A stretch of 64,000 nt of DNA from Eledone cirrhosa (Eukaryota), in NCBI GenBank assembly GCA_964016885.1, contig OZ024743.1:327236001-327300000 (forward strand), written 5' to 3'. The position numbers and the translations under genes were made by a program. Under the pieces are notes generated by a model. It saw only the letters and a program-made list of their open reading frames with translations. It was not told the DNA's origin and ran no database searches. Within the stretch, counting starts at the first letter, position 1. The number at the start of each line of letters is the position of its first letter. Shown here one piece after another: positions 12,088 through 41,097 of the stretch.

Positions 12088-12277
12088 TCAAATAGAAATT
12101 TGAAGAATACCAAAATAAGATGTATCCCATGTTTGTGTAAAGTTTATATAAGAGTTCCTTGGTATTTTCCTAATTCCAATTTGATCGTTTATTTCGAAAT
12201 AATCTACAACAGAATGTGACAGGCTATCCACAGCATTTTTGGCATTTCTTGATGAAGTCAAGTGGATAAGATTCCCT
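12088..12277 (-). CDS. TNF-superfamily ligand, terminal coding exon
   Basis: Acceptor TTTTCTTTCCAG, phase 2. Reads (R)GNLIHLTSSRNAKNAVDSLSHSVVDYFEINDQIGIRKIPRNSYINFTQTWDTSYFGILQISI*. SYFGILQI matches the terminal TNF strand (T/S-Y/F-FG). Confidence 0.8.
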
Positions 12278-12960
12278 CTGGAAAGAAAACCAAAACATTA
12301 AAGAATTTCTGGAGTATATTAAACTATTTATACTTTTTGAAAAAATAGGTATTTGTTTACCATAACCTTGAGTCAATGCAAGCCTTGTAAGTGAAATTGG
12401 TTAGACAGAAACTGTTTGGAAGTTCATTGGATGGACTGTTTTGTAATTCAAAGGGCCAGCCTTGTTATACACTCAGTCATGTTGAATCTCCCTGATAATT
12501 ATTCTAAGAGTACAGATGCATGTAGAATGCTAAGTCACTTTGATGTTAATTCCATGAACAGGTTGTTCCATTGACTGAACAACTAGAACATTCATTGTTG
12601 AAACTGACAAAGATCCATTCCATTTTAATTAGGATATCAATAAAATAAAATATCATTTGTTTTTCATCAATTCATTTAAAGTTTTAATTACTTAATTCTA
12701 ATTAAGTATGCAACTATTTAAATCTTTTGAAAATCATCAAGAATTTGGTGGGATTTAGTAAAATAACTAAATTTCTTATTATTAAGCTGATATTAAGAAC
12801 ATAACGTAATATTCTTACATAGAATTATGACCGAATTTGTTTTACATAAATAGAAACACTTTAAAACAAACAGTTTTATATCATAGGAGCATGGCCAGTT
12901 TGGTAATAAAAGAGGCAATGAAAATTATGTGTTTGAAATAGAATCAGGAATAAACTTTAC

Positions 12961-13059
12961 CTGTTTTCCTGTGTAACAAAACTGGACATCAGAGAATTTC
13001 TGGTTCCCGAACGTTTGATGAGGACTGTTTCATAACCATAGCTTAACAAATTACCATCT
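12961..13059 (-). CDS. TNF-superfamily ligand, internal exon
   Basis: 99 nt, phase 2 to 2, acceptor TTTTTTTAATGAAG, donor AG|GTAAAG. Reads DGNLLSYGYETVLIKRSGTRNSLMSSFVTQEN, in frame with both neighbours. Confidence 0.72.
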
Positions 13060-14230
13060 CTTCATTAAAAAAATCACCAAAAATTACAACTTTCAAAATA
13101 TAAGATATAAATCATTTTAAGACTTTGTTCTTGCAAATATTTTAATATTTTAATAGGCCATAATTGTCATCCCACCACTTACTGCTCCACTTACTACACA
13201 TGGCATACTTTCTATCCCTACCACGGAGAAAGGGGGACTCTTTAATTGAGTCAATGATCAATACCATCCCTAGTGCTGAGGCCATGATTAAATGCACCCC
13301 GTAAAGTAGTTGGTATTAAGAAGGCCTTCAAGCTGTAGAAACCATGCCAAAGGGTTGAAAGGACTCTTCTGTCATGATATAGCAACTTCTCTAGTGTTGG
13401 TACTAGGAAGGACATCCAGCTGTAGAAATCATGCCAAACAAAGGGTCAAGAGGACTCTTCAGTTGTGTCAAGTGCACAGCAGCCTCTCTAGTATTGGTCA
13501 CATGATAGAACACACCCTGCATGACCTGCAAAGTGGTTGGTGATAGAAAGGGTTTTCAACCACAGAAAACGTTGTGAGGTCTGTTTAGTCATGTCAGAAA
13601 TGTGACTACCTTCCTAGTGCTGATGCCACAACAATGCACTTTGTGCACTCCTGTAGAGAGAAAGGGGCACAAGAACATATGTAAATAAAGTGTGGCCCAC
13701 AGCCCATCTGAAAGGTCAGTAACTCTGATTAAGACTTGTTCTGTGATGACCTGTCCAACCCTTCTCAAAAGAGAAAAGGGATGTTAAATAATGATGGTGA
13801 TGAATATAACTGAGAGTTTCACTTACACAAAATTTCAGGGCTGTCTGCCATTTGTTTTTAAAATCAGAATGTGTTCTTTAGATAATGATTGCGCTCATCA
13901 TTAAGGGTGTAATTAATTAAAATTTGCTGGCTTACTACATTGACTGTTATGTTTTATGCAATAGGTGTCCCAGTGTATTCTACCCCCCCCCCCTCACACA
14001 CACACACATACACTCATCATTCTTCTCTGTAAACAATGTAAATGAAATTTCCCTCTTAGTTGGAGAAAGAAAATAAAAGCCTAGCTGTATTTTTTTATAA
14101 CACAAAATGTCTGCATAAATAGAATGCATTTATATTTAAAAAAAGACAAGAAATGGGAGAAGACATGGCCACTCAATCACACTTCACTACAAAGGCACTG
14201 TAGTTTCCCTGTCATAATGTTTTAGGCATG

Positions 14231-17200
14231 CCACTACTACAGTAGTATGAAGTCACCAACAAACTCCTGCTCCACAGATAGACTGTCTTTTCTCTCTGTC
14301 TTTCTAACCACTACTACATAGGCATGAAGTCACTCAACAACACACTCCTCCTGCGTCACAGACTGTTTCTTCTCTCTGTTTTTCTAACCACTACTACATA
14401 GGCATGAAGTCACTCAACAACACACTCCTCCTGCGCCACAGACTGTTTCTTCTCTCTGTCTTTCTAACCACTACTACAGTGACATGAAGTCACCAACACA
14501 CTCCTCCTGCGCCACAGACTGTTTCTTCTCTCTGTCTTTCTAACCACTACTACAGTGACATGAAGTCACTCAACAACACACTCCTCCTGCGCCACAGACT
14601 GTTTCTTCTCTCTGTTTTTCTAACCACTACTACAGTGACATGAAGTCACCAACACACTCCTCCTGCGCCACAGACTGTTTCTTCTCTCTGTTTTTCTAAC
14701 CACTACTACATAGGCATGAAGTCACTCAACAACACACTCCTCCTGCGCCACAGACTGTTTCTTCTCTCTGTCTTTCTAACCACTACTACATAGGCATGAA
14801 GTCACTCAACAACACACTCCTCCTGTGCCACAGACTGTTTCTTCTCTCTGTCTTTCTAACCACTACTACATAGGCATGAAGTCACTCAACAACACACTCC
14901 TCCTGCTCCACAGACTGTTTCTTCTCTCTGTTTTTCTAACCACTACTACATAGGCATGAAGTCACTCAACAACACACTCCTCCTGTGCCACAGACTGTTT
15001 CTTCTCTCTGTCTTTCTAACCACTACTACATAGGCATGAAGTCACTCAACAACACACTCCTCCTGCGCCACACACTGTTTCTTCTCTCTGTCTTTCTAAC
15101 CACTACTACAGTGACATGAAGTCACCAACACACTCCTCCTGTGCCACAGACTGTTTCTTCTCTCTGTTTTTCTAACCACTACTACATAGGCATGAAGTCA
15201 CTCAACAACACACTCCTCCTGCTCCACAGACTGTTTCTTCTCTCTGTTTTTCTAACCACTACTACATAGGCATGAAGTCACTCAACAACACACTCCTCCT
15301 GTGCCACAGACTGTTTCTTCTCTCTGTTTTTCTAACCACTACTACATAGGCATGAAGTCACTCAACAACACACTCCTCCTGCTCCACAGACTGTTTCTTC
15401 TCTCTGTTTTTCTAACCACTACTACATAGGCATGAAGTCACTCAACAACACACTCCTCCTGCTCCACAGACTGTTTCTTCTCTCTGTTTTTCTAACCACT
15501 ACTACAGTGACATGAAGTCACCAACACACTCCTCCTGTGCCACAGACTGTTTCTTCTCTCTGTTTTTCTAACCACTACTACAGTGACATGAAGTCACCAA
15601 CACACTCCTCCTGTGCCACAGACTGTTTCTTCTCTCTGTTTTTCTAACCACTACTACATAGGCATGAAGTCACTCAACAACACACTCCTCCTGCTCCACA
15701 GACTGTTTCTTCTCTCTGTTTTTCTAACCACTACTACAGTGACATGAAGTCACCAACACACTCCTCCTGTGCCACAGACTGTTTCTTCTCTCTGTTTTTC
15801 TAACCACTACTACATAGGCATGAAGTCACTCAACAACACACTCCTCCTGCTCCACAGACTGTTTCTTCTCTCTGTTTTTCTAACCACTACTACAGTGACA
15901 TGAAGTCACCAACACACTCCTCCTGTGCCACAGACTGTTTCTTCTCTCTGTTTTTCTAACCACTACTACATAGGCATGAAGTCACTCAACAACACACTCC
16001 TCCTGCTCCACAGACTGTTTCTTCTCTCTGTTTTTCTAACCACTACTACAGTGACATGAAGTCACCAACACACTCCTCCTGTGCCACAGACTGTTTCTTC
16101 TCTCTGTTTTTCTAACCACTACTACATAGGCATGAAGTCACTCAACAACACACTCCTCCTGCTCCACAGACTGTTTCTTCTCTCTGTTTTTCTAACCACT
16201 ACTACAGTGACATGAAGTCACCAACACACTCCTCCTGTGCCACAGACTGTTTCTTCTCTCTGTTTTTCTAACCACTACTACAGTGACATGAAGTCACCAA
16301 CACACTCCTCCTGTGCCACAGACTGTTTCTTCTCTCTGTTTTTCTAACCACTACTACATAGGCATGAAGTCACTCAACAACACACTCCTCCTGCTCCACA
16401 GACTGTTTCTTCTCTCTGTTTTTCTAACCACTACTACAGTGACATGAAGTCACCAACACACTCCTCCTGTGCCACAGACTGTTTCTTCTCTCTGTTTTTC
16501 TAACCACTACTACATAGGCATGAAGTCACTCAACAACACACTCCTCCTGCTCCACAGACTGTTTCTTCTCTCTGTTTTTCTAACCACTACTACATAGGCA
16601 TGAAGTCACTCAACAACACACTCCTCCTGCGCCACAGACTGTTTCTTCTCTCTGTCTTTCTAACCACTACTACAGTGACATGAAGTCACCAACACACTCC
16701 TCCTGTGCCACAGACTGTTTCTTCTCTCTGTTTTTCTAACCACTACTACAGTGACATGAAGTCACCAACACACTCCTCCTGTGCCACAGACTGTTTCTTC
16801 TCTCTGTTTTTCTAACCACTACTACATAGGCATGAAGTCACTCAACAACACACTCCTCCTGCTCCACAGACTGTTTCTTCTCTCTGTTTTTCTAACCACT
16901 ACTACATAGGCATGAAGTCACTCAACAACACACTCCTCCTGCTCCACAGACTGTTTCTTCTCTCTGTTTTTCTAACCACTACTACATAGGCATGAAGTCA
17001 CTCAACAACACACTCCTCCTGCGCCACAGACTGTTTCTTCTCTCTGTTTTTCTAACCACTACTACAGTGACATGAAGTCACCAACACACTCCTCCTGCGC
17101 CACAGACTGTTTCTTCTCTCTGTTTTTCTAACCACTACTACAGTGACATGAAGTCACTCAACAACACACTCCTCCTGCTCCACAGACTGTTTCTTCTCTC

Positions 17201-20200
17201 TGTTTTTTTAACCACTACTACATAGGCATGAAGTCACTCAACAACACACTCCTCCTGCGCCACAGACTGTTTCTTCTCTCTGTTTTTTTAACCACTACTA
17301 CATAGGCATGAAGTCACTCAACAACACACTCCTCCTGCGCCACAGACTGTTTCTTCTCTCTGTTTTTCTAACCACTACTACAGTGACATGAAGTCACCAA
17401 CACACTCCTCCTGCGCCACAGACTGTTTCTTCTCTCTGTTTTTCTAACCACTACTACATAGGCATGAAGTCACTCAACAACACACTCCTCCTGCGCCACA
17501 GACTGTTTCTTCTCTCTGTTTTTCTAACCACTACTACATAGGCATGAAGTCACTCAACAACACACTCCTCCTGCGCCACAGACTGTTTCTTCTCTCTGTT
17601 TTTCTAACCACTACTACAGTGACATGAAGTCACCAACACACTCCTCCTGCGCCACAGACTGTTTCTTCTCTCTGTTTTTCTAACCACTACTACATAGGCA
17701 TGAAGTCACTCAACAACACACTCCTCCTGCGCCACAGACTGTTTCTTCTCTCTGTTTTTCTAACCACTACTACATAGGCATGAAGTCACTCAACAACACA
17801 CTCCTCCTGCGCCACAGACTGTTTCTTCTCTCTGTTTTTCTAACCACTACTACAGTGACATGAAGTCACCAACACACTCCTCCTGCGCCACAGACTGTTT
17901 CTTCTCTCTGTTTTTCTAACCACTACTACATAGGCATGAAGTCACTCAACAACACACTTCTCCTGCGCCACAGACTGTTTCTTCTCTCTGTCTTTCTAAC
18001 CACTACTACATAGGCATGAAGTCACTCAACAACACACTCCTCCTGCGCCACAGACTGTTTCTTCTCTCTGTCTTTCTAACCACTACTACAGTGACATGAA
18101 GTCACCAACACACTCCTCCTGCGCCACAGACTGTTTCTTCTCTCTGTCTTTCTAACCACTACTACAGTGACATGAAGTCACCAACACACTCCTCCTGTGC
18201 CACAGACTGTTTCTTCTCTCTGTCTTTCTAACCACTACTACATAGGCATGAAGTCACTCAACAACACACTCCTCCTGCGCCACACACTGTTTCTTCTCTC
18301 TGTCTTTCTAACCACTACTACAGTGACATGAAGTCACCAACACACTCCTCCTGCGCCACAGACTGTTTCTTCTCTCTGTCTTTCTAACCACTACTACAGT
18401 GACATGAAGTCACCAACACACTCCTCCTGCGCCACTGACTGTTTCTTCTCTCTGTTTTTTTAACCACTACTACATAGGCATGAAGTCACTCAACAACACA
18501 CTTCTCCTGCGCCACAGACTGTTTCTTCTCTCTGTCTTTCTAACCACTACTACATAGGCATGAAGTCACTCAACAACACACTCCTCCTGCGCCACAGACT
18601 GTTTCTTCTCTCTGTCTTTCTAACCACTACTACAGTGACATGAAGTCACCAACACACTCCTCCTGCGCCACTGACTGTTTCTTCTCTCTGTTTTTTTAAC
18701 CACTACTACATAGGCATGAAGTCACTCAACAACACACTCCTCCTGCGCCACAGACTGTTTCTTCTCTCTGTCTTTTTAACCACTACTACATAGGCATGAA
18801 GTCACTCAACAACACACTCCTCCTGCGCCACAGACTGTTTCTTCTCTCTGTTTTTCTAACCACTACTACATAGGCATGAAGTCACTCAACAACACACTCC
18901 TCCTGCGCCACAGACTGTTTCTTCACTCTGTCTTTCTAACCACTACTACAGTGACATGAAGTCACCAACACACTCCTCCTGCGCCACAGACTGTTTCTTC
19001 TCTCTGTCTTTCTAACCACTACTACATAGGCATGAAGTCACTCAACAACACACTCCTCCTGCGCCACAGATTGTTTCTTCACTCTGTCTTTCTAACCACT
19101 ACTACAGTGACATGAAGTCACCAACACACTCCTCCTGCGCCACAGACTGTTTCTTCTCTCTGTCTTTCTAACCACTACTACAGTGACATGAAGTCACTCA
19201 ACAACACACTCCTCCTGCGCCACAGACTGTTTCTTCTCTCTGTCTTTCTAACCACTACTACATAGGCATGAAGTCACTCAACAACACACTCCTCCTGCGC
19301 CACAGACTGTTTCTTCACTCTGTCTTTCTAACCACTACTACAGTGACATGAAGTCACCAACACACTCCTCCTGCGCCACAGACTGTTTCTTCTCTCTGTC
19401 TTTCTAACCACTACTACATAGGCATGAAGTCACTCAACAACACACTCCTCCTGCGCCACAGACTGTTTCTTCTCTCTGTTTTTTTAACCACTACTACAGT
19501 GACATGAAGTCACCAACACACTCCTCCTGCGCCACAGACTGTTTCTTCTCTCTGTTTTTTTAACCACTACTACAGTGACATGAAGTCACCAACACACTCA
19601 TCCTGCGCCACAGACTGTTTCTTCTCTCTGTTTTTCTAACCACTACTACAGTGACATGAAGTCACCAACACACTCCTCCTGTGCCACAGACTGTTTCTTC
19701 TCTCTGTTTTTCTAACCACTACTACAGTGACATGAAGTCACCAACACACTCCTGCGCCACAGACTGTTTCTTCTCTCTGTTTTTCTAACCACTACTACAT
19801 AGGCATGAAGTCACTCAACAACACACTCCTCCTGCGCCACAGACTGTTTCTTCTCTCTGTCTTTCTAACCACTACTACAGTGACATGAAGTCACTCAACA
19901 ACACACTCCTCCTGCGCCACAGACTGTTTCTTCTCTCTGTCTTTCTAACCACTACTACATAGGCATGAAGTCACTCAACAACACACTCCTCCTGCGCCAC
20001 AGACTGTTTCTTCTCTCTGTCTTTCTAACCACTACTACAGTGACATGAAGTCACTCAACAACACACTCCTCCTGCGCCACAGACTGTCTCTTCTCTCTGT
20101 CTTTCTAACCACTACTACAGTGACATGAAGTCACCAACACACTCCTCCTGCGCCACAGACTGTTTCTTCTCTCTGTTTTTCTAACCACTACTACAGTGAC

Positions 20201-21190
20201 ATGAAGTCACCAACACACTCCTCCTGCGCCACAGACTGTTTCTTCTCTCTGTCTTTCTAACCACTACTACAGTGACATGAAGTCACCAACACACTCCTCC
20301 TGCGCCACACACTGTTTCTTCTCTCTGTTTTTCTAACCACTACTACAGTGACATGAAGTCACCAACACACTCCTCCTGCGCCACAGACTGTTTCTTCTCT
20401 CTGTTTTTCTAACCACTACTACATAGGCATGAAGTCACTCAACAACACACTCCTCCTGCGCCACAGACTGTTTCTTCTCTCTGTCTTTCTAACCACTACT
20501 ACATAGGCATGAAGTCACTCAACAACACACTCCTCCTGCGCCACAGACTGTTTCTTCTCTCTGTTTTTCTAACCACTACTACAGTGACATGAAGTCACCA
20601 ACACACTCCTCCTGCGCCACAGACTGTTTCTTCTCTCTGTCTTTCTAACCACTACTACATAGGCATGAAGTCACTCAACAACACACTCCTCCTGCGCCAC
20701 AGACTGTTTCTTCTCTCTGTTTTTCTAACCACTACTACAGTGACATGAAGTCACCAACACACTCCTGCGCCACAGACTGTTTCTTCTCTCTGTCTTTCTA
20801 ACCACTACTACATAGGCATGAAGTCACTCAACAACACACTCCTCCTGCTCCACAGACTGTTTCTTCTCTCTGTCTTTCTAACCACTACTACATAGGCATG
20901 AAGTCACTCAACAACACACTCCTCCTGCGCCACAGACTGTTTCTTCTCTCTGTCTTTCTAACCACTACTACATAGGCATGAAGTCACTCAACAACACACT
21001 CCTCCTGCGCCACAGACTGTTTCTTCTCTCTGTCTTTCTAACCACTACTACAGTGACATGAAGTCACTCAACAACACACTCCTCCTGCGCCACAGACTGT
21101 TTCTTCTCTCTGTCTTTCTAACCACTACTACAGTGACATGAAGTCACCAACACACTCCTCCTGCGCCACAGATGGACTGTCTTATCTCTG
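14231..21190. repeat. Satellite array of 80-bp and 76-bp monomers (roughly 85-90 copies)
   Basis: 80-mer CTACTACATAGGCATGAAGTCACTCAACAACACACTCCTCCTGCGCCACAGACTGTTTCTTCTCTCTGTTTTTCTAACCA interspersed with a 76-mer variant (CAGTGACATGAAGTCACCAACAC). Confidence 0.98.
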
Positions 21191-21480
21191 TCTTTTCTTC
21201 CACCACTATAGTAGCCTCTACTCCTCAGAACTAATAGATCTTGTGTCATCTGTACTTGTGTGCAACCAATTCACTTTATTCTCTTTCTCCTATCCCCCAC
21301 ATTATTTTCCCACCAGGACCCAATCTAACTACTATGCTCAGTCTTTCCGTCCTAGAACAATGAAATTCTCTCCATGTCCATATTTTTCCTCAAGCTATCA
21401 AATTGCATATTTTTAAACAAGAACATTAACTACATCAGTCTAACTGGTTGCAGAGGTCCTGCAATGGGCATTGACAAAAC
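21138..21480 (+). mobile_element. 3' end remnant of a CR1/L2/Jockey-group LINE ORF2
   Basis: LCLFFHHYSSLYSSELIDLV...RTQSNYYAQSFRPRT resembles the LINE C-terminal motif SLxLFYRYYxGxCSSEL...SFFPRT. Confidence 0.65.
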
Positions 21481-22040
21481 CCATTCCTTCAGACCAAACC
21501 AATGTGTGTTTGTGTGTGTCCATATTGTTGTCACTATCTGTAAAATGGCATCTCTTTACAATGTTTGACATTTTATACTCAAAATTTAAATTTCTAAAAT
21601 TTCATTCAAAATATTTCCACATTGAATTATTTAGATCTTGTTTACATCTTCTTCAGCTGCATTTATAATACTCCAATTGGTGCTGATCCCACAATAAAAA
21701 GCACCCAGTGCACCCTGTAAGGTGGCAGTACTGGTGTCTTTATAAAAAGCACTCAATCCACCCTGTAATGTGGTTGGATTGGTGCCACAATGAAAAGCAC
21801 CCAGTCCACCCAAAAAGTTGGTAGTGCTGATGCCATGATAAAATACTCCCAGTATATACTGAAAGTGGTTGGCATTAGGAAGAGCATCTAAAATAGAATG
21901 TATGAGCAAAATGTAGTCATCTGACTGGTCAAGCCTCAGAATATGACAACCTGCCTAACATATCAAGCATGGAAAATAGATGTTAAACAGTGGTGGTGAT
22001 GACGATATATATAAATTCATTTTCTCAACATAACAATTAC

Positions 22041-22173
22041 CTTCTTTGACCTCTAACTGTGATCTGTGTGAAAACCATGAAATAGCCAGATGTATTCAAC
22101 GTAACCGTTCCGTTTAGGTTGTATATTATTTTACTTCCAATACCAATAGATTCTGGGTCCCATTGAAAGAACT
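22041..22173 (-). CDS. TNF-superfamily ligand, internal exon
   Basis: Acceptor TTTTTTTTTCAG, donor AAG|GTAATT, 133 nt, phase 1 to 2. Reads FFQWDPESIGIGSKIIYNLNGTVTLNTSGYFMVFTQITVRGQR, with the QW and NG.h.h..SGYF.VFTQI motifs (cf. GLYYVYSQV). Confidence 0.82.
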
Positions 22174-22882
22174 CTGAAAAAAAAATCAGAAAAAGAAACA
22201 GTTTATATGACAGTGATAAATTAGATGATATAAGGCTTTGAAATTGAAGCTTTTTTTTTTTTAAAGAATAGTATCCTTTATCATGAATAATAGATGTATA
22301 AAACAGATTTTTATTTCATTTCATCAAGAGAAAAACATGGAAGAAGACATACACATTTAATTACATGCCACAATACAGTGTGCTGGAGTTTCCCCTCTAA
22401 TAATTTCTGAGGCAAGTTACAATACTCTATTGCTGCAGGTGATAGCAAGTCTAAGACACTAGAACAACTAAGCACCCTCACCTGTGGCATTACCTGATAT
22501 GCCGGTAAGATGAGCCATCAACTTTGTTGTCAGCAGCCCAGCTCCCACAAACATCTCAAAATAGTTTGCCAATTATTATGGTAATTTTAGAATTTTATTC
22601 CATTCAGCTACAGATGTGGTATCCCTCACCTACACTGTAACATCTAGTATGTTGGAAAGAGCTCTTTTTAACGTAGGTGCAAGGCCATATTTATGATGGA
22701 AGATGTAGTACCAGTGGTATTTATTTTATCAATCTTAGAAGAGTAAAAAACAAAGTTGATTCTGGCAGGATACAACTGATAAATATAACATTTTTGAATT
22801 TGAGGAAATATTTATGTATACTTCAGAGTTGTATTTATCTAGCAAGTGACTTGATCTAAGACTGTGTATTGAAACTAAAATA

Positions 22883-23036
22883 ATTACTGTGTGGTAGAGT
22901 CATTTTAGCCATTTAAAAACACACAAAAACTATTAACTTTACATTTATTTATCATTTATTTCTTGATGACACTAGGAAATAAATGATAAACAGTTTTTAT
23001 GTTTTTAAATGACTAAATTGATTCTTCCACAGTAAG
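22883..23036. repeat. Nested imperfect inverted repeat (hairpin)
   Basis: Outer arms TTACTGTG..TTTAGCCATTTAAAAACA / TGTTTTTAAATGACTAAA..CACAGTAA. Inner arms TTTATCATTTATTTC / GAAATAAATGATAAA. Confidence 0.7.
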
Positions 23037-23149
23037 TATTTACATAAATTTGTTCATAAATAGTTAAAAAACAAATGGATTTATTCACATAATATTTTAG
23101 GTTTTCTAAAATGAAAAGATGTTCATTATATAAGTTATGAGGTTATGAA

Positions 23150-23350
23150 TAATGAAATTATTGTTTCCAGTGCTCAGGTGCATTAAAACTCATCAAATGT
23201 GCATGTATAGTACATAGAATAATGTACAAATGTCAGGAAAATGAACATTGTATGAGTCATGATATACACGTGTGCATGTGTATGGAGGGGGAATATCAGG
23301 TGTAGTGTTGGCGAATTTCAGGAAGCATGGACGTTTTAAAGAATGCAGTT
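23150..23350 (-). mobile_element. CR1-like LINE 3' end fragment
   Basis: Homologous to 42160-42360, the 3' end of the long CR1-like element. Confidence 0.75.
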
Positions 23351-28834: not shown

Positions 28835-29195
28835 CATCTGGGTTGTCTAGAAGTGACGGCAAAAGACCTGACGGTCTTACCCTGTGCCCCTGGTCGAGAG
28901 GCAGGTGCCTTGTCTGGGACGTTACTGTTAGTGACTCTTTTGCTTCTTCCCACATCCTAGATGCTGCGGTTAGGGCGAGAACCACAGCTTCCGCAGCCGA
29001 GCGAAGCAAGGGCCTCAAATACAGTGAGTGATCTGTCGGCCAACTACATTTTCCAACCTGTGGCTTTCGAGACGTTTGGGGGAGTCGCCTAATAGAGATA
29101 ACTGGCGAATCTCGCGAGGGCGCTTGGATGTTCCAGCGCATTAGCCTGGCCATCACCCGAGGTAACGCTGTAAGTGTGCTGGCTTGCCTCAAAAA
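28835..29195 (+). mobile_element. CRE-like non-LTR retrotransposon fragment (restriction-like endonuclease domain)
   Basis: GLSRSDGKRPDGLTLCPWSRGRCLVWDVTVSDSFASSH followed by frameshifted F..VAFETFG and WMFQRISLAITRGNA. Confidence 0.75.
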
Positions 29196-29285
29196 TCATG
29201 AGAGAGGTTGCCCAGTACTCCTCGCGACGCTGTTGTCTTTTGCTCTGGTGTTGGCTCCGTTGTTCATCCTGTCCTTTATAATTTC

Positions 29286-29606
29286 GGCAAAACAACGCTA
29301 TTAGCTGTCAGTCGAAAGCAGCCGATGAAAGCAAAACATCGTTTTTTTCCGTATTACTACCACGCGTAAGTGGATTTTTTTTTTTTTCTAATTAACTTAA
29401 ATTTGTTTTCTAATTTGGCCCTTTTAAGGGCCACCTATATTTTCATTTAAGTAACTCCACTTACATCGATATGCTTTAATAAAAAAAATAAAAAACGCGT
29501 GAAAACTCCACTTACGCGTGGTGGTAGTAATACGGAAATAAACGATGACGAATGACGTCACCTTCGCCTGCTTTCACGACTGACAGCTAAATAGCGTTGT
29601 AGTGCC
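29286..29606. mobile_element. Foldback MITE with 8-bp TSD (possibly Merlin/hAT type)
   Basis: ~95-110-bp imperfect TIRs starting GGCA(A/C)(A/T)ACAACGCTA. The identical 8-mer ATAATTTC flanks both ends (29278-29285, 29607-29614). Confidence 0.85.
29417..29435 (+). promoter_or_regulatory. Orphan histone 3' stem-loop consensus
   Basis: GGCCCT-TTTA-AGGGCC-ACC, one base different from the H1 stem-loop at 34235. No histone ORF upstream. Confidence 0.55.
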
Positions 29607-29847
29607 ATAATTTCTTTAATATTGCAACATTAAAGGAATATATCCTTCTGAAAGAACCGCGAGCATTTATAATGTTATTTAAGCATTTGTAGTGTTATTC
29701 ATGTATATATTTAAATTATAAGCTAAAAAATCATTAAAGGTAAATTCAAGTGCCCCCTGGTTTTGGTGCGTGCTTTAGTGTTATCCCCCTCTCTTTCCTT
29801 AAAATATAAACTGTGTTAATTTGTATACGTTCTATTGAAATTAGCTT

Positions 29848-32674
29848 CTTCTCGGGTCCCAAATAATAGGTGGGTGGTAGGGTGGAAAAATCGGTAATTT
29901 TTCTAGGTTGTGCCCCTTGATTTCTTTTAAAAACCAGAATTAGGCATTTAGTTTACACATTGAGACTCCAACCCTTCCTATTTATTTTATAACGTATGGG
30001 ATTTCTTGTAATGTATTTTTTTTGTTATGTATAATGGTTTTTTTTAATGTCTACAGAAAATGAATTATAACAGGAATGCTACCACTTAAAATAAAATTTC
30101 GCCGGAGATAGATTAGCAAAATTTAATAAGCAGGGTTGTTGTAATAAGGGCGGCGAGAGTGGGAAAATATTATTTTTTAAAGTTTTTCCTATCATTGTTT
30201 ATTGGAAATTTTCTATAGGGAAAAGAAGGAAAAAAAAAAAACACAGTTAAAATGATTGTCTCTATAGAATTTTATGGTAATTTAAAGTTAGTAATTTTGC
30301 AGTTCTTTTGCACAAAAAATTAATTAACAAAAATCCACAAAATATGTTTACAAATCATCAAAAATGAATAGGCCATAAAATATCAAAGCCAGTAAACCAG
30401 AGACTGAACTGGCACTTTTCTGAAAGATAATTTATTGAATTTTACTCTACTGAGTATAGTTTTCTAAACAAGTCTAACAAAAATCAGACAACTTTTAGAA
30501 ATGTAATAATTCATTGTAATGAAATTATTCAATTTTTGCTCCAAGAACATCTTCAGAAAACAAAATCTTCTCAAATTTCACATCATTCCACACTATAGAG
30601 TTAATACTTTCTGGAACCCCCTGGCTATGGTGGACTTTTGAGCAAAAATTCAGTTAAAAGAACTTAAAAGTTGAAGTTTTATGATGACTTTAATGTTCTC
30701 TGTTGGAGCTTGAAACATCAGTTCCCCATGAAAATAATGCATACTTTTGTGTAAAGCTGCGCTCGATGGTACCTAATACAATGATACTCAAATAGGCTGA
30801 AATGTTTAATATAGTTATTTAGAGACATTTTATTTTCCCAGTGCCCAATCCAGGGTTGTCAGATGCTTTAGGCACTGTCATTTAAAATAGTCACCATATG
30901 ATAAGGACTTGATGTTAAGCAATAATTGACATTTAGAAATAATATAGAGGTTTTGCAGTAACCAATACTTATGTAGGAGAACTTAGAAAAGATTATACAT
31001 TTTGAAACTGAATGCATGTAACAGTACAGGCTTTTAAACTAAGAGGAAATTTTCTAGTGCTCCACAAGTTAAATACTCAATATACTCATACTCAATGTAT
31101 ATATAAAATACATGGAAGCAATTTTGCTTTCCTCTTGCATTGAAAGTGAAACATTCTTATGTTTGAGTGACAGGGCTGTGTCTATTTCTCCTAAATGAAG
31201 CAGCCAGGGCAAGGTCTTTTTGATGAAATTTCTGGATGAGATATTATAAGCATCCTTTGGAAGATGTCAAGAATGTTGTCTTTTACTGCAAGCTAGCGAG
31301 ATCTTGCAGTTGACCTACTCTGAAATGACCTAATGTGTTTGATCAAACTTTTTTCATTCCATTTCAGAATTGACTGTCCACCATCCATTCAAAAAATACC
31401 CAGCTCTGAGCACACATTTGATGAAATGGTGGAATTATAACCACCCACAAGGAGCCCCTCTCATCAATATATGAGTTTTTAAGTGTAACATTAAATCTAT
31501 CCCAAGTGCCTTCAATCTGTCAGAACTTACCTTTAATGTTGTCAGAGACAAGAATATTTCACAATTGTCTTTCTCTTCCTGCTTCAAAATGTGAGAACAT
31601 ATATTTTTGCAGTTTTTTTTACTGAAAATTTGGTCAGTCAATGGCCCATATTGGTGTTCCCACCCATCCCACTGGGTGAGTCCATTAGCATTCCAGTGGT
31701 TGACTTAATATGGTCAATGCACTGTTGCTTGGCATGCTGAATAAACTGCAATAGATGTCAAGCTTCACCTCAAGTGATACAAAATCTTTTGAACAAAATC
31801 CTAGTTTCCTTTGAAGGACTGAGAAACAATGCAAATCTGTTTATATAACACTAACCATTCCTGAGAAACAATGCAAATCTGATTTCATGACACTAACCAT
31901 TCCTTTTATTGCTGGAATTATCTTGTCAGCAATCAATTTTTCCCAGGCTTCCTTACAGGAATTATAATCCTTCATTATATGGTGTCCATCAGATATTAAT
32001 GAAGTATCATTTGCCTCAGCTTGTGTTGGTGGCATGGCATAAATGACAGAATTGTCACCTTGAAGAAGAGATATCATCTTGTCATGAATCATTAAACACT
32101 ATTTTGCAAATGACATTCACATTTGTCATTTACAGTGACACATGAACCAAAACTTTCCCTGATAACTTTCAAAGAAGGCTCAAATTCTACAGACAGCATA
32201 TCTTGAACTTCTACAGCTCGTGCCAACGAAACTGGATGAGCAAATGCAGTGCTGTTTGGACCAGGGTAATTCTAATGGGCAATAACACGGCAATATAAAT
32301 GAGGCTTTTTCTGTTAGGTCCAGAGTGCCATAGAGAGACACTTCTTTTCTAAGCATGCCAAATTCATCCCTATGATAAAATTTACAAATCTAATACATTT
32401 ATTTTTCCTCCAAACAGAAATCACGGCAATTAAACAAATTTTGCAGCAAATGCCAGAAAAAACAATCAAGATATATCTTTCAAATTAGGTGCTTTCTTTG
32501 AATAGTTTTATTTCCAATAAGCTATAAACGACTTCTCTGCATCAATTTTTTGCGGAGATATGAAATTATTCCCAAATTTGGCATTCTGGGCGCACTGTGT
32601 GTGTGTGTGTGGGGGGGGGGGGGATCTGAAAAATTAATAAGCGGGAGGGGACGATTATTCGAGACCCGAGAGTA
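29848..32674. mobile_element. Decayed TIR DNA transposon, unclassified
   Basis: Ends TCTCGGGTCCCAAATAAT (29850) and ATTATTCGAGACCCGAGAGTA (to 32674) are inverted. Interrupted minus-strand ORF remnants at 31435-32092. Confidence 0.55.
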
Positions 32675-33536
32675 TAGAGGCTTTTTCTTATATTTCTTAC
32701 AACGTGAATTTATACTCCAAGATAAACTTATGTTTTAAATAGCTTTTCTTTCATATTTCCGTCATTGAATAACTTCTTTTTGTAAATTATAGTTGACATA
32801 ATAAGTTTATGTATAACAGATAATAAAATAAAAATTTAAGGTCTGTTTTTTGAAAAAAAAAAAAAAAAAAAAAAAAATTATCTGTCTTCAATTGTCCGTA
32901 AAGGACAACGGCCCTGGTGGTCAATAAAAAAAAATCATTATTTCAGTATTAGCAAAAAAAATTAATTACCAACCGAAGTAAAATATTCTATGCTTCGAAT
33001 ACATATATACTAAGAAAACACCCTATAAATAAAAATCCATCGTTTTTTTAATGAAAATGTAAGTCTTTTGTATTCAATTCAAACGAAACCATATCTGTTG
33101 GTGTATGTCAGGTATATGTGCGTCCCACCACAAATCCGGATCGATTTATATAGAGTTATTATTGATAAAACTACTCAAATCAAATTAATTACTAAAGAAC
33201 AAAGAATGAATTTATATATCGTTTCGCAAAATTTTATAGAGAATGAAAAAATAAATGATAAAAATGAATTTTTCAGATGGGTCGTAGTAATCTGATTACC
33301 AACATGTCAAAGAAAAATCGAATAAAAATAGTAACAACAAAGTTTGTCAATAATTAAAGTAGATTTTTATAAAGTAACATTAATGTAGAATAGATATATA
33401 AAAAAAAAAATATTTGTTTTGTCTGTCATCAATAAAAAGAAAGCTATTTACTAAGCAGTCTAAGCACATTCATATATCTTTCTTAAAATACCCGCTGTTT
33501 ATTTGAACTTGTCTACTACTACGTCCGTACAATTAT

Positions 33537-33544
33537 TATAAATA
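33537..33544 (+). promoter_or_regulatory. TATA box of histone H1 gene
   Basis: TATAAATA about 60 bp upstream of the ATG. Confidence 0.7.
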
Positions 33545-33604
33545 GAACGTCAGCCGTCGCTGTGTACTAGTATTTGTTACCAAATCACTAAATTGAAATC
33601 AACC

Positions 33605-34210
33605 ATGCCTGAAACTGAAGTTGCTGCTGCTGCTGAACCCGCGGCCGATCCGCCAGCCGCCCCAGCCAAGGCTAAGAAAGCCGCAAAACCGAAACCTAGA
33701 GGTGAAAATCATCCTAAATACAAGCAAATGATATCTGAAGCTATAACTGCTCTCCGTGAAAGAAATGGTAGTTCTCGCCAGGCCATAACCAAATATATTA
33801 AAGCCAACTATAATCTCTTAGGTGGAGAAAAAATCATTCGCCACAATGTGAAGCAATCATTGAAAGTGAGTGTTGCTGCTAACCATGTTGTACAGACAAA
33901 AGGTACTGGAGCATCAGGATCTTTCAAACTCGTCACTGCCAAGAAAGCTAAGAAGCCGAAGGCCAAGGTAGCCACCAAGACAAAGACGCCTGCTAAAGCA
34001 AAGAAATCCGTCAAGAAATCGCCAGCAAAAGCCAAGAAATCGCCAGCAAAAGCCAAGAAATCGCCAGCAAAACCCAAGAAATCGCCAGCAAAACCCAAGA
34101 AATCTCCAGCAAAGCCGAAGAAAGCAGCTGCTAAAAAACCTAAGCCGAAGAAATCACCCGTGAAGAAGACTGCTAAAAAAACAACCAAACCAAAGAAGGG
34201 TAGAAAGTAA
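33605..34210 (+). CDS. H1: Linker histone H1 (201 aa, intronless)
   Basis: ACCATG start, winged-helix globular domain (HPKY..MI..AI.AL.ERNGSSRQAI.KYI...QTKGTGASGSFKL) and Lys/Ala/Pro-rich tail with KKSPAK repeats. Confidence 0.97.
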   Translation: MPETEVAAAAEPAADPPAAPAKAKKAAKPKPRGENHPKYKQMISEAITALRERNGSSRQAITKYIKANYNLLGGEKIIRHNVKQSLKVSVAANHVVQTKGTGASGSFKLVTAKKAKKPKAKVATKTKTPAKAKKSVKKSPAKAKKSPAKAKKSPAKPKKSPAKPKKSPAKPKKAAAKKPKPKKSPVKKTAKKTTKPKKGRK

Positions 34211-34230
34211 ATTAATTACTTTTTTGTTTG

Positions 34231-34254
34231 AAACGGCCCTTTTCAGGGCCAACA
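34231..34254 (+). promoter_or_regulatory. Histone mRNA 3' stem-loop (SLBP site)
   Basis: AAAC-GGCCCT-TTTC-AGGGCC-AACA. The stem begins 25 nt after the stop codon. Confidence 0.95.
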
Positions 34255-36472
34255 AAAATTTGGGAGTCTCTTGTCGATTACGATTGATATAGTACTGTCT
34301 ATAGTCGAGGTACGTAGATCGCTTCGATTGTAATCTTGCTAATTCTATTTCGTTTGCTGACATACATTACACGTTAGCGCCTTTTCAAATTAGGAAATAA
34401 CGTTTTAAAAGAATAGCCACAATCGATTCTTATTCAGTAATTGTCATTCTGCATACATTTTGGTGTATTTTTTCCGTTTTCAGGTGCCCCTTCTAGACGT
34501 ATGAAATTTATAACTCTTTCAAAATATTTCCGCTTCTCCAAACTATCATCACCTCGCCGGCGAATTTTCTGCTTTCGAAAGGTAATGTTTGTTTCAAGAG
34601 ACATGGAAAAACTTTTCAATTTGTCTACATGACTACTATAAAAAATGTTTTCTTATTTCCCGATTTGTCCTAATTTCTGTTTTAAACTGTTAGTCGGTTG
34701 AGAGAACTCGCAAGGCGGCAAAAAGTGGGTTACATTTTAAACTTTGGCGCTTTTTCATTAGGCTATGGATTTAAAGTAGGCATAACCGTTTCATTACATT
34801 TCTAATAACTTTCTTAATGAAATTACGGAAAGTTTTTTTAATGAATGAGCATTGGAAAACATTTTGAGGAACTTAAATAGTTATGGAACTTAAATAGTTA
34901 TGGAATTTTTAAAAAAGATGAATGTGAGCATTCAAAAACATTGTAGAACCGATGATTGTTTATTAAATTGTAGGCTAAACATATATTTTCAGTAGTGTAA
35001 ATTGAGTTTTTTCGCAGTCCCGTAAAAGATCTGGATAGATAAATATTCGTTATCGAGGTATGAAATCTTTATCGTATCCTTTTTGATATACCAATGCGCC
35101 TTCCACCGCCCTTAGTTTGCCGATATTAAACCTTTTACGGTGTTTATTTATTTGAAACTCTTCCTTCATAATTTTATGTAAATTTTAAACTTCCAAATTC
35201 TCGATTAAGAAATCGCGGGCAGTTTTTCTACGCTCTAATAAATTTTATTCCGTACGCGCCTTTTCTGTATCTCGAGCTAACGAACGAATTAAGTGGAATC
35301 CTGATACTAGCTTCATTTTTGTATTGCGAGCTATTTCATAGGTCTGGATTCACAGTTAGTCCTACGGCAGTGTAATATTACACTATGGGCTGCTATTTCT
35401 ACCATATGCAGAGATAGTTGTCACCTCCGCCTCATTTCTACTGGTTTCAGCCATTAGAATGTGACCCTGCTGGAACGGATTTTAGTCTCCAGAATGCTCA
35501 GCCATTAGACGTTAATTTCATTGTCGAAAAGCCTTTCTTTATATTATGGGTATAGATTGAACTTGAGGAAAAATATCAAAGGGGAACAACTTTAGGTTTG
35601 TGGAACAATTATCTTTTTAAAAACTAAAAGCAGTCTTGATAAATCGTTCATTGCCGGCACGTATATTGTCTTAAAATGGAACAACCATTACCATTTTTTT
35701 TTTGGAACTTCTCCCATAAAAGTGGAAACATTTCTGGTGCATTTGAAAATCATCTATGAAAGTTTTAATCACAGGAAATTACATATTTAATTGAGTGAGA
35801 CGATGTATCAGCTGCGTTCTAGACAAGACTGCAAAAGCATTGCTGCGGAGAACAGCTAGTGACAGCCGCTGTCTCGGTCATTCCACATCGGAGCTACTAG
35901 TGAGATGCACTCCCGTTTCGGCGGCAACCATCATGAAAAGGAAGCAGTCTGCCAAATCTTGGTACTTGGTTTACCCATTAAATATGTTAATTGCTCCGAA
36001 TTGTGGACCATATAATTTACTTATAACGTTATGTATAAACATCAATTCAATACGTGGAATGGACATTCGACGATGAGTTCCAGTTTAATGAAATTAGCGT
36101 GTAAGTGGCCGAGCATTCCATATATACGTGAGCTCTTAACGTAATTCTGTATCAACGTTTAACCTAATAATTGAAGCTAGCTTAACTATTTGGCCATTAC
36201 AGGAAAGAACGAATAGCGATAATGTGCGTGTATGTATATATATGATATACTTGTTTTTATTGGCAGCATAACCTTCCGAAAATATAACTATATATTGTGA
36301 GGGCCCGGGAGTCGGGTTAGATGATTGAATTCGCAATCGCGAGATTGTGAGTTCGATTCCCGGACCAGGTGATGCGTTATGGACGAGACACTTTATTTCA
36401 CGTTGCGACCGATAGTATTAGCAATTGAAAGACCAATGGAAACATTGTTTCCTCGGTCCGATTTGACGAAAG

Positions 36473-36505
<33 letters not shown>

Positions 36506-37590
36506 CACATATAGATACCTAGCTTCACTTTGGTAAACAGGGAAGTTCAGTAGAAGAGAAAACTACTATTGCATGCGTGGTATGAGAAAAAGAAAATAAT
36601 TTCGAAAATCTTTCCAGGTTTTTCGTGCATAGTATATGAAGATTTCTAGGTGTTCCTACTCGTGAACAACCTACATATTATTCTTGGTTAAAAAACCGAT
36701 TCTCTCATTTGAGACTAACCATGAGCTTTATGGTCATAGCAAAACCGGCTCTAACAGGGAACCGTTAGAGAATTTGAACGGCAGCTCGGTAGAGGATAAA
36801 TGCTTTTTCTCCTTGTTGGAGATGGTTCATAATTCGCCTGATTATTAGCGTGTGCCATTGCATAGACGTTGCAGGATGGAAGTTTTAATCTTTTTATATT
36901 ATATATAGATATAATTATGTATGAAATTCGAATCCACGGAGATGCTGGCCTCGAAACTCTAGTATCGTTGACAACGCAGAGATTCCCTGGTTGTCTTCCC
37001 ACACCTGCTAGAAATAGCAGTCGGTTTAGTTAGCATACACGGAATGATTTTTGTTTTGTTATAAAATGAGTATCAAGAAACTTTTCTGGGTACACCCTTA
37101 TTGGTGTACTAACTTCGATTGTCAGTTTTCGTTTTTGCGTGATGTGCGAAGACACCAACCTACAAACATCTTTCTTTTATCAGACTGGCTGGCGCTCTGC
37201 TAGTTATACCTGCCCCCACCACTCCCACTGCAAAGATACCACTCACCTCCCGTGTCACATTGTCCTTCCGACTCTCTCTGAATGACTAACACTTTAATTG
37301 TATCTCTCTCCTTTTTCCCCTCCTCTGTTTTTCTGTCTCTCTCGGTAGATGTGTGTGTAGTTCCCTAATCTTTCTCTAAATCTCTCTTTCTATGTGTAAT
37401 ATATTGAAGGGAGATACGGAAACTAAAACTGTTGTCATATAGGAGAGTGAAGAGAGTAAAGCAGTTAAATTATAGAGAGGGGAATGATCTTACATACATT
37501 TTAAGTATAGATGTGTGTGACTTGTTTTGATATCCGGCAATTGGTGAAATCAAGTGTGAAAGTATTTGTTTGTGTGGGATACATACATTA

Positions 37591-38185
37591 TTATATTTAT
37601 CAGGTGTTGGTGGTTTGGCAGTATCGGTAGAGGGTTGGACAACATGCTTTGTAACACAGAGTTACGCCCCTTTCTGATCTGAGTTCAAATCCTGCCGAGG
37701 TTAACTTTGCCTTTCATCCTTACGGGGTCGATAAAATAAAGTACCAGTAATGCACTGGGTATTTGATGGCCTTGTGCCAAAAGTAGAAACAATTATTATA
37801 TTTATCAGGTGGTGGATTGGCAGTATTGGTAGAGGGTCGGACGCCATGCTTTGACGCATAGAGTTACGCCCCTTTCTGATCTGAGTTCAAATCCTGCCGA
37901 GGTTAACTTTGCCTTTCATCCTTACGGGGTCGATAAAATAAAGTACCAGTAATGCACTGGGTAATTGATGGCCTTGTGCCAAAAGTAGAAACAATTATAT
38001 TTATCAGGTGGTGTATTGGTAGAGGGTCGGACGCATAGAGTTACGGCCCTTGTCATTCTGAGTTCAAATCCCACCGAGGTTAACTTTGCCTTTCATCCTT
38101 ACGGGGGCGATAAAATAAAGTACCAGTAATGTACTGGGTATTTGCTGGCCTTGTGCCAAACGTAGAAACAATTATATTTATCAGG
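37591..38185 (+). mobile_element. Three head-to-tail tRNA-derived SINE copies
   Basis: ~180-205-bp units, each with B-box GAGTTCAAATCC and the same body, joined by TTATATTTATCAGG. Confidence 0.88.
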
Positions 38186-39014
38186 GTTGCCTTTTGATGT
38201 ATGTATTACCTGCTGTCATATAGAGAGTGAAGAGAAACAGAGTAAAGTAGTTAAATTGTAGAGAGGGTGAATGATCTATTATAGAGAGAGGGAAGAGTGA
38301 CAGATATATATATGAAAAACCCCATTTGCTCACCATACAGAGAGATGGAGACGATGACTGGGAGTTTGGTTCTTCCACGTTCGAACCATATCCTTGTGGT
38401 TGTGTTGATCATTCTTTGATGATCTGTTATATGTGGTCATTGTTGCCTCTCCTTGGTTCCCCACTCCACAAATATGTATTTGTTTAGCTTGTTAAAAGAC
38501 CTGTTAGTGTTTCAATGACATTAAAATACTTTTAATACTAAATTGCCTTTTATTTTAAAGTGTTTATATTTATCTAAACACAATGTTATGTAAGAAGCTT
38601 AGTTATATTCCAAACACCATCTTAATGAGAGTTTTTTTTACTGAATTCCTTCAAATTTTCAAAATTTGAAAATCAGGTTGTCTTAGAAATATAGTAATAA
38701 AAAGGGTTAAAAGGGATGGAAGGACTTCTACCTCTGTTTTGGTCCATTTTTTTTAATCTCTCCGATATCAAATTGAACATTATCCTTTTTAAAGTGGAAA
38801 CATGATGTTCTGATTGTGACAAAAGTAAACCAAACAAAACTTGAATACATTTTTACAATATATGTTTTCAAATATGATATGGACTAAATGAATATTAAAA
38901 TGGTGATAAATATATTTTGAACTTGTTTACTCATATATAGGAGAGTCATGAAAGTGAAGACAATTATGTACAAAAATTTCCAATAGACAAACCACATTTT
39001 GTGGGAAGGATATA

Positions 39015-39354
39015 TACAGTGTACCCCCGGCATTCACAGAATTTTCTTTGGAACCTAACTAATAATTGTTCATGGAAATCACTGCATATTCACGTAATTG
39101 TAAATAGCTTCCGTGATTTTTTTAATGGATTTTTTCGTGGCAATATATATTTTTTAATGCTAGATTATTAATAACAATATACCATATAGGATGCCCGCCC
39201 CATTACATAAGACGCTCCCTCTTTTTTTATAACATTTTACGTTATATTTTGATGTTCATAGGCATTTTATGGACCACATCCAATAATTGCAGATTTTCAC
39301 TCTTCATGGGTGCTTAAGGAACATAACCCCTGCAAATACTGTGGGACAACTGTA
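39015..39354. mobile_element. pogo/Tigger-like MITE
   Basis: TA-CAGTGTACCCCCGGCATTCACAG ... CTGCAAATACTGTGGGACAACTG-TA: imperfect TIRs with TA TSD. Confidence 0.6.
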
Positions 39355-39950
39355 TATAGCTGTCACTTGCAATCGAAAATGACTGTATTATACACAAACA
39401 TATATGTTTCACTCTACCAAATTTCCCTCTATGTATTGGTAAACCTTAAGTTCATTCCATGACATTTACAGCTAAGGTAAACTCATTGAGAAGGTTTGTG
39501 GTTGAGGCCTGTGACAGTGGAGACTTCCAGTTTTCTTGGCTGGACCACATCCCTACTCACTGCTATCGGAGTGGAGTTGGCTACCCACAAGTGTGAACCC
39601 TGCAAGGTGGAGTAGCTGTTCCAGCACATCTCCTTTGCCATCCTCTGGGGGGGGGGGGGGGGGGCAATGTTTTCTCTATCCTGTCTGCTGGAACCATGAG
39701 GCAGACTGACCCTTAAGTTTCATTTATGGTGGTGGCATGTGGAATAGATTTACTTGCATTTTATTATACTGTGTTCTTTCAAATTGTTTCATAAATACTT
39801 TACTTCATTCACACACTGTTGAGTAAAGTGTCAATGACATTCCCTTTTGGCTTAGCTTATGGTACTCTGAGCAAAGGAAAGCTATGGAAAGTGGAGTCCA
39901 TTATAGTAGTTAGAGAAACAAAGTAAGTGCATTGACAAAGAAACATTTAC

Positions 39951-40011
39951 CATTGTTCTGTTGCTGTTTTGTTCCATGCATGTATATGATGTCCTTGTTA
40001 TTTACAATTCG
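39951..40011 (-). CDS. TNF-superfamily ligand, exon encoding strand A
   Basis: Acceptor TTTGTTTCATTTTCTCCAG, donor G|GTAAAT, 61 nt, phase 0 to 1. Reads RIVNNKDIIYMHGTKQQQNN(E) and joins the 22173 exon in frame. IIYMHG sits at the AHLTG position. Confidence 0.65.
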
Positions 40012-41078: not shown

Positions 41079-41097
41079 TTTTACTTCATATAATTAC

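Follow-up and report, generated by a model that had tools for sequence, protein, structure and literature searches.

The 64,000-nt stretch of DNA analysed here (the window) carries on its minus strand four small exons that are spread over 28 kb (12088-40011) and whose joined product reads as a TNF-family signalling domain. As laid out in the preliminary description, the exons, of 61, 133, 99 and 190 nt, are separated by GT-AG introns and join in frame into 160 aa with no internal stop; we reproduced all coordinates, introns and the translation, and found the remaining two frames of the joined exons riddled with stops. The first exon seen (exon 1, 39951-40011, with AG/GT flanks) encodes the end of a stalk and the first strand of the TNF homology domain. 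It is followed by a phase 1 intron of 17,777 nt (22174-39950) that contains repeats as well as a histone H1 gene nested in antisense orientation; a weak Toxin_trans Pfam row for the histone (E 0.028) was dismissed as noise. Exon 2 (22041-22173) encodes the conserved Trp and a G-Y-F-x-V-F-T-Q strand, and the phase 2 intron behind it (13060-22040, 8,981 nt) consists mostly of a 6.9-kb satellite (14231-21172). The middle strands of the domain lie in exon 3 (12961-13059), which is joined across a short phase 2 intron (12278-12960, 683 nt) to exon 4 (12088-12277, including the TGA), the last coding exon, with the last strands and a terminal YFG. A QENRGN motif runs across this last junction and is identical in two Octopus proteins, XP_029633980.1 and XP_014789043.1. 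Downstream, a putative 3' UTR region (11596-12087) holds an ATTAAA at 11731 and is overlapped by an inverted repeat (12019-11899 / 11715-11596).

Splice sites were scored with a rough matrix of approximate frequencies taken from general knowledge. On this scale the three donors lie at percentiles 95.8, 99.2 and 99.3 among 4084 minus-strand GT sites, and three of the four acceptors reach at least percentile 99.9 among 4425 AG sites, with the acceptor of exon 3 weaker (86.6). The gene had been called hidden, which is true only in the sense in which it is true of any multi-exon animal gene: with exons of only 20-62 codons, absence from the track of open reading frames is expected.

The joined product matches XP_029633980.1 of Octopus sinensis (LOC115209654; blastp, 82/153 identical, 54%, E 4e-53, 3 gap positions) and is 49% identical to XP_014789043.1 of O. 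bimaculoides (LOC106882773). Both are labelled ‘uncharacterized’ in NCBI; the UniRef name of the latter (UniRef100_A0A0L8FKF9) is ‘TNF family profile domain-containing protein’. Single exons also reach the O. sinensis protein: exon 2 by tblastn at E 1e-12, exon 3 by tblastn at E 7e-8 (21/33 residues identical), and exon 4 by phmmer in a search of 1.84 billion proteins (E 2e-6). The top phmmer match of exon 4, a 24-repeat HYR-like protein, was rejected, its score being a sum of weak repeats. When a profile built from the two Octopus proteins only was searched against 3406 six-frame peptides of the window, the peptides of exons 2, 4, 3 and 1 took ranks 1-4, on one strand and collinear, with E values of 8e-14, 1.5e-13, 1e-8 and 2.2, the last nearly tied with the rank-5 peptide (E 2.3). 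Judged from sequence similarity, the four-exon chain is thus more than chance.

The two Octopus domains are identical to each other at 132 of 160 positions, which would make the window gene a paralogue missing from the protein collection or else the orthologue in a cephalopod further removed from these two. A third relative, the O. vulgaris model CAI9719519.1, carries a fused Usp domain, has neither the anchor nor the last strand, and is probably a fused gene model. Searches with XP_029633980.1 and with an alignment (A3), which went through 456 and 1846 candidates, returned these three proteins and nothing from outside Octopus. TNFs of bivalves or gastropods were likewise missing from the results of the sequence searches, and a word-based homolog search with exon 4 gave none among 6 candidates. 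No paper in the searched literature cites any of the six accessions of the relatives.

The O. sinensis protein is 270 aa long, with the TNF domain starting at about residue 117. Both it and the O. bimaculoides protein have a type II topology, with a hydrophobic segment at residues 23-41 that keeps the spacing of 50-100 residues from the domain expected of a TNF-ligand anchor. Both also have a furin-type site, RFRR at 93-96, which precedes the domain by about 20 residues, and no collagen repeat. A Pfam comparison had been proposed for the domain, and it gave the TNF family (PF00229) as the sole family match of exon 4 and of both relatives, though no score reached the curated cut-off (23 bits): exon 4 alone matched positions 76-127 (E 0.017, 15.5 bits), XP_029633980.1 positions 3-127 of 127 (E 1.9e-4, 21.8 bits), and XP_014789043.1 scored 17.1 bits (E 0.0055). 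Exons 1-3 scanned singly had no family match. These scans covered single exons and relatives, and the joined product is tied to PF00229 through its identity to the O. sinensis protein. Signature motifs of TNF ligands occur as variants, a GLY-type G-Y-F-M-V-F-T-Q in exon 2 and an FFG-type Y-F-G in exon 4, motif types named in the methods of 10.1101/2024.07.27.603686.

A prediction of the trimer had also been suggested. ESMFold2 gave three copies of XP_029633980.1 residues 112-270 a score of 0.84, the best of 3 controls reaching 0.02, and the trimer runs of this domain had at least 76% contact agreement and a pLDDT of at least 75. In calibration, the mark applied was reached by 21/30 solved pairs and 0/23 single chains, and for eukaryotes by 17/29 (animals 7/16) and 0/30 single chains, with only 1/7 among those without an older solved relative. 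A homotrimer is thus predicted for the domain of the Octopus relative, but because TNF trimers have already been solved, the pass may reflect memory of them. The predicted three-fold trimer packs through the first, middle and last strands, and at 28 of its 39 interface positions the window protein has the identical or a similar residue; the interface is no better conserved than the rest (17/39 vs 65/112 identical, p 0.14). ESMFold2 folded the relative at a pLDDT of 76. The two AlphaFold2 models of XP_029633980.1 are of low confidence (pLDDT 37 and 31), and a Foldseek search with the former found nothing at E ≤0.001, with TNF ligands making up 20 of the 34 matches listed (E 4-10).

We consider it highly probable that the four exons form the 3' portion of an animal TNF-superfamily ligand gene, whose product would be a type II, furin-cut, trimeric protein that signals through TNF receptors. 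Its 5' exons are likely to be situated outside the window. By analogy with the relatives, the complete product is likely to sit in the membrane in type II orientation through an N-terminal anchor like that at residues 23-41, and a furin-type cut is likely at a site like their RFRR; the trimeric ligand would then act as a cytokine, either anchored in the membrane or released. Going by family knowledge only, the trimer would signal through a TNF-receptor-family protein with TRAF-dependent JNK/NF-kB output, and might act in innate immunity, in cell death or in development.

It is unlikely, by comparison, that the protein has the TNF fold without being a released agonist and acts instead as a membrane-bound, decoy, or developmental/structural protein unlinked to classical TNF-receptor signalling. 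The divergence of the domain, whose relatives score below the Pfam cut-off, would fit such a role, as would the confinement of the recovered relatives to Octopus among the candidates searched and the fact that the gene's own stalk and furin site are not seen within the window. However, both intact Octopus relatives keep the anchor and RFRR, and the 3:3 ligand-receptor mode is reported, on the basis of predicted structures, to be conserved across invertebrates (preprint 10.1101/2024.07.27.603686).

The preliminary description had also drawn attention to the absence of cysteine and to several N-x-S/T sequons. The 160-aa product indeed has no Cys, so an E-F disulfide cannot form; the domains of XP_029633980.1 and XP_014789043.1 likewise have none, however, and the lack is, as far as these sequences go, common to the clade and not peculiar to the window gene. 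Without cysteine, the fold would hold without an E-F or CD-EF disulfide. Our search of the literature on cysteine-free TNF ligands found nothing that settles how rare they are. Three sequons were found, at residues 41, 47 and 143, the first kept in both Octopus relatives and the third in O. sinensis only. None of the three falls within the predicted trimer interface; they would be glycosylated, on the surface of the trimer.

Within the superfamily, the members with an E-F disulfide combine furin-type release with a domain split over several exons. They and the arthropod Eiger have the TNF fold that is probable for the window protein, which lacks their E-F disulfide. As for the likeness to BAFF, APRIL and EDA that had been seen in the exon structure, three introns interrupt the domain here, and the disulfide defining that group is absent. 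A search of the literature on TNF exon structure found nothing with which to compare intron positions. The conventional group (TNF, FasL, CD40L, TRAIL, lymphotoxin) is also without the E-F disulfide, and the window protein differs from it in having neither a CD-EF disulfide nor a TRAIL-type cysteine. Lymphotoxin-alpha also lacks a disulfide, a point on which we found no relevant paper. Conservation of the E-F disulfide in Eiger, BAFF, APRIL, TWEAK and EDA is described in PMC6684607 and 10.1101/444554; PMC4199593, PMC11762692, PMC11869874 and PMC6001812 serve as background only.

On a more speculative reading, which we hold to be quite improbable, the gene would belong to a cephalopod-specific TNF branch that descends from a multi-exon, furin-released ancestor of the Eiger/EDA type, has shed the E-F disulfide, and has been missed by surveys through scoring below the Pfam cut-off; its product would be a released developmental signal (EDA-like skin/arm patterning) and not an immune cytokine.

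That the domain is instead the globular head of a C1q-type protein, which shares the clan and fold, is very improbable. In the ESM Atlas, the clusters closest to exon 4 by itself are C1q-like or unnamed (0.91-0.93), with C1q in 12-31% of their members, and the first TNF cluster comes at rank 16. The sole PDB match of this exon is adiponectin, a weak one, with an E of 0.0073 made up from three repeats of 5.3 bits. The whole domain of XP_029633980.1 (112-270), on the other hand, has TNF clusters as its top three (0.91, 0.90, 0.89; 196-200 shared features), a FasL-named cluster being third, and the first C1q cluster only at rank 13. FasL is also the sole PDB sequence match of that protein, again weak (E 0.46); the PDB match of exon 2 (E 7.3) was rejected as chance, and alignment A3 had no match among PDB sequences. 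Neither exon 4 nor either Octopus relative matches the C1q family (PF00386), whereas all three match PF00229, and the relatives have a type II topology without a collagen repeat. The TNF-superfamily reading of the preliminary description is supported by PF00229 in exon 4 and the relatives, by the topology and furin-type site of the relative, and by the Atlas clusters; having no Cys, such a ligand is not a member of the EF-disulfide (BAFF/APRIL/EDA) group.

Evidence from sequencing reads comes from two runs of one study, X1 and X4, the library type of X4 not being on record. In X4, positions 538-670 of contig 9 (1053 nt, depth 82) correspond exactly to exon 2 (22041-22173) with 0 differences, and the contig continues elsewhere on both sides in non-intronic sequence. 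The other X4 pieces listed have a depth of 2-4, except one in a repeat, and X1 covers 21969-22613 unbroken. Reads across the exon junctions had been named as a check on the gene. The contig matches both ends of exon 2 exactly, but none of the three exon joints is among the 15 joints listed (of 960), in a comparison that was crowded by repeats and that included only the first intron. For 11600-13300, an RNA lookup listed no run. As a side observation, on which no claim here rests, the share of words of this region found in X4 is 0.34, which would fit the 0.36 expected for a spliced mRNA ending at about 11710.

A transmembrane exon had been reported as not found, and none was recovered by us in the window either: the 24 kb upstream of exon 1 within the window (40012-64000) yielded no membrane or furin exon, and splice-scored candidates there, 62392-62213 among them, were rejected because they do not resemble the N-terminal part of the relatives. 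We give very little credence to the view that this marks a truncated or dead copy, with real exons and a lost 5' half, even though the upstream stretch, in which no coding exon was found, is full of LINE fragments. All four exons read through in one open frame, at a divergence of 46% from the relative, the splice sites are intact, and the X4 contig could hold the missing codons in the 322 or 476 nt, depending on how the record is read, upstream of exon 1. Since the introns reach 9-18 kb, further exons beyond 24 kb are plausible.

It is highly improbable that the chain is partly a chance join, with exon 1, 17.8 kb off, wrong or using another donor: exon 1 alone is not significant (E 2.2-4.8; 8/20 residues identical to XP_029633980.1), an alternative in-phase donor at 39945 slightly outscores 39951 against that protein (42 vs 36), and the exon 1/exon 2 joint is absent among the X4/X1 joints listed, yet among 5197 open AG..GT candidate exons that lie upstream of exon 2 and end in the required phase, compared with residues 112-132 of XP_029633980.1, the six highest-scoring ones (34-42 points) come from the exon-1 locus, with no other place scoring above 28, the exon-1 acceptor stands at the 99.9th percentile, and donor 39951 gives a gap-free alignment at the junction.

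As a TNF-superfamily ligand, the window gene would be an ordinary additional member of a family whose genes are common in molluscs, Octopus TNF ligands having already been reported. Known molluscan ligands include six TNFSF paralogues in O. vulgaris, 23 in Crassostrea gigas and PmTNF of the pearl oyster, which have a C-terminal TNF homology domain, as it does, and a type II anchor, as its Octopus relatives do, with a length of about 250-270 aa and low mutual identity. The picture of the family, in which molluscs have many TNF ligands, is thus unchanged. Cytokine signalling in cephalopods has been little studied, and the correct exon structure of a divergent TNF ligand is now available. In addition, an invertebrate TNF domain that is naturally free of disulfides offers a useful data point for the question of whether the E-F disulfide goes back to the ancestor and can be dispensed with.

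On the minus strand, four exons (40011–39951, 22173–22041, 13059–12961 and 12277–12088), with AG and GT flanking each, lie where the preliminary description had placed them and, as it proposed, splice into one open frame of 160 residues followed by TGA. The introns measure 17,777, 8,981 and 683 nt and are in phases 1, 2 and 2. By a rough matrix, six of the seven splice sites fall above the 95th percentile of all same-strand GT or AG sites, and the exon-3 acceptor is weaker (percentile 86.6 of same-strand AG sites). The joined product contains no cysteine and three N-x-S/T sequons, also in agreement with that description. Over the 24 kb upstream, tblastn, a profile search and a scan for splice sites all failed to detect an N-terminal exon. 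The top-scoring splice-site pair of the window (62213–62392, minus strand, 180 nt) lacks similarity to the relatives described below and could represent an untranslated or unrelated exon.

On its own, exon 4 matches the Pfam TNF family in its C-terminal portion (PF00229, E 0.017), and exons 1–3 taken singly had no family match in the Pfam scan. A search of 1.84 billion proteins with exon 4 returned two matches, one being Octopus sinensis XP_029633980.1 (E 2e-6), labelled “uncharacterized”; the other, a repeat protein, was rejected as an artefact. A search with the O. sinensis protein brought in O. bimaculoides XP_014789043.1, which UniRef names “TNF family profile domain-containing protein,” and O. 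vulgaris CAI9719519.1. No further relatives beyond these three, all from Octopus, were found among 456 and 1846 candidates, which makes a cephalopod source probable; the searched literature held no paper citing their accessions. In the O. vulgaris model, which has neither anchor nor last strand, a Usp domain (PF00582) is attached to a TNF stalk and domain, and the model is probably an annotation fusion of adjacent genes; no Usp sequence occurs within the 64-kb window.

The joined product is identical to the O. sinensis protein at 82 of 153 positions with three gap positions (8/20, 26/45, 21/33, and 29/62 for exons 1–4, respectively). With a profile built from the O. sinensis and O. bimaculoides proteins only, the four exon peptides take ranks 1–4 among 3406 and are collinear. 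On its own, exon 1 scores weakly in this profile (E 2.2, with E 2.3 for the rank-5 peptide); its locus nevertheless holds the top six among 5197 candidate exons. The domains of the two Octopus proteins are identical to each other at 132 of 160 positions; judged by sequence comparison, the window gene would therefore be either an orthologue in a cephalopod that is more distantly related or a paralogue absent from the lists.

Both of these relatives have a hydrophobic segment at 23–41 and RFRR at 93, followed by the domain. They match PF00229 below its cut-off of 23 bits, the O. sinensis protein at 21.8 bits (family positions 3–127) and the O. bimaculoides protein at 17.1 bits. Among ESM Atlas clusters, the O. 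sinensis domain is nearest to TNF clusters (0.91, 0.90, 0.89). Exon 4 alone is nearer to C1q-like or unnamed clusters and weakly matches adiponectin, as one would expect from half of a shared fold, although this likeness counts against a TNF assignment. Based on the PF00229 match of exon 4, the identity to the O. sinensis protein and the TNF clusters, we consider the TNF-superfamily reading of the preliminary description to be right, and the gene, which is real and probably expressed, to encode a TNF-superfamily ligand and belong to a small Octopus-related clade.

TNF ligands of invertebrates are already well known: one survey reports 290 TNFSF homologues in 148 proteomes, with up to 27 in a single mollusc and six in O. 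vulgaris, all in one cluster (10.1101/2024.07.27.603686). Crassostrea gigas is credited with 23 TNF ligands (as cited by PMC12843592), and a pearl-oyster TNF of 249 aa is described with anchor and domain (PMC12367993). The E-F disulfide is shown to be present in Eiger, BAFF, APRIL, TWEAK, and EDA and absent from TRAIL and TNF (PMC6684607), and an account that defines three TNF-ligand subgroups places an intramolecular disulfide in most TNF ligands (10.1101/444554). Thus, a cysteine-free domain is a minority state, which sets the window protein apart from the EF-disulfide subgroup and rules out that subgroup only, not the TNF superfamily. Because the O. sinensis and O. bimaculoides domains likewise lack cysteine, this state is a clade trait.

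AlphaFold2 models of the O. sinensis protein were both of low confidence, with pLDDT 37 (two sequences) and 31 (domain alone), and Foldseek found no significant match with the first of them. ESMFold2 with three copies of its residues 112–270 gave 0.84 in all three runs vs. 0.02 for the best control, with at least 76% of contacts in common and pLDDT of at least 75. The trimer prediction envisaged in the preliminary description was made, with this outcome, on the domain of the relative. In calibration, the mark was reached by 21/30 solved pairs and 0/23 single chains; for eukaryotes the counts were 17/29 (animals 7/16), only 1/7 for those without an older solved relative, and 0/30 for single chains. 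The trimer pass may reflect memory of solved TNF trimers. The window protein is identical or similar at 28 of 39 predicted interface positions, where identity (17/39) is not above the rest (65/112), and none of the three sequons falls within the predicted interface.

Of four sequencing runs listed, X1 and X4, both from one study, were aligned over 21950–41940; for 11600–13300 no RNA run was listed, which is neutral as evidence. An X4 contig (1053 nt, depth 82) covers exactly 22041–22173 with zero differences; its match is confined to record positions 538–670, and it therefore runs on at both sides in non-intronic sequence. X1 covers 21969–22613 unbroken. Flanks of 537 and 383 nt in the X4 contig are long enough for exon 1 together with a further 322 or 476 nt upstream, and by arithmetic also for exons 3–4 and some UTR, in either reading direction. 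For the junctions that had been proposed, this spliced-looking contig, from a run whose library type is not on record, marks both borders of exon 2; the partners joined do not appear among the rows listed.

Animal DNA of high AT content makes up the window. In it lie TA microsatellites, pieces of LINE reverse transcriptase and of a mariner-type transposase, and a satellite (14231–21172; 6.9 kb, about 89 copies of 78–80-bp units, 93% matches) that fills most of the second intron. Nested antisense inside the 17.8-kb intron is an intact, intronless histone H1 gene (33605–34210, plus strand; 201 aa, PF00538 E 3e-27). Its 3′ stem-loop, from 34232, is of the replication-dependent type, and core histone ORFs were not noticed in the vicinity. 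The arms of a foldback or MITE-like element (29292–29600), which has high depth in X1 and whose other copies skip 29374–29519, also enclose a histone 3′ stem-loop (RF00032, 29412–29456, 34 bits), but no histone ORF lies next to it. Both arms of a perfect 340-bp palindrome (9647–9986) match the type I hammerhead ribozyme (RF00163, 31.7 bits vs. a gathering score of 34, E 2.8e-5), and the palindrome presumably resembles the inverted terminal repeats of Penelope-like elements; a second, near-perfect palindrome (330 bp, 94%) lies at 54867–55196.

Just past the stop codon, an inverted repeat (11596–12019; arms about 120 nt, 97/120 columns complementary) forms a long hairpin when folded as the mRNA strand (z −12.5 vs. 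−8.8 for the other strand). Its arm mismatches favor G-U over A-C by 11 to 2 on the mRNA strand (p 0.02, uncorrected), a bias absent from five other inverted repeats. The repeat may represent either an ancient foldback element or a retained RNA structure; since ATTAAA at 11731 precedes the second arm, the full hairpin might be missing from a short mRNA.

Gene structure and homology are the observed part of the mechanism that we propose. Given the anchor of its relatives, the product would most likely be made as a type II membrane protein and glycosylated, trimerize via its TNF domain, as predicted for the O. sinensis relative, and be released by cleavage at a furin-type site such as the relatives suggest. 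By analogy with the family, the ligand would then most likely cluster a cysteine-rich-domain receptor, with receptor output most likely passing via TRAFs to JNK or NF-kB.
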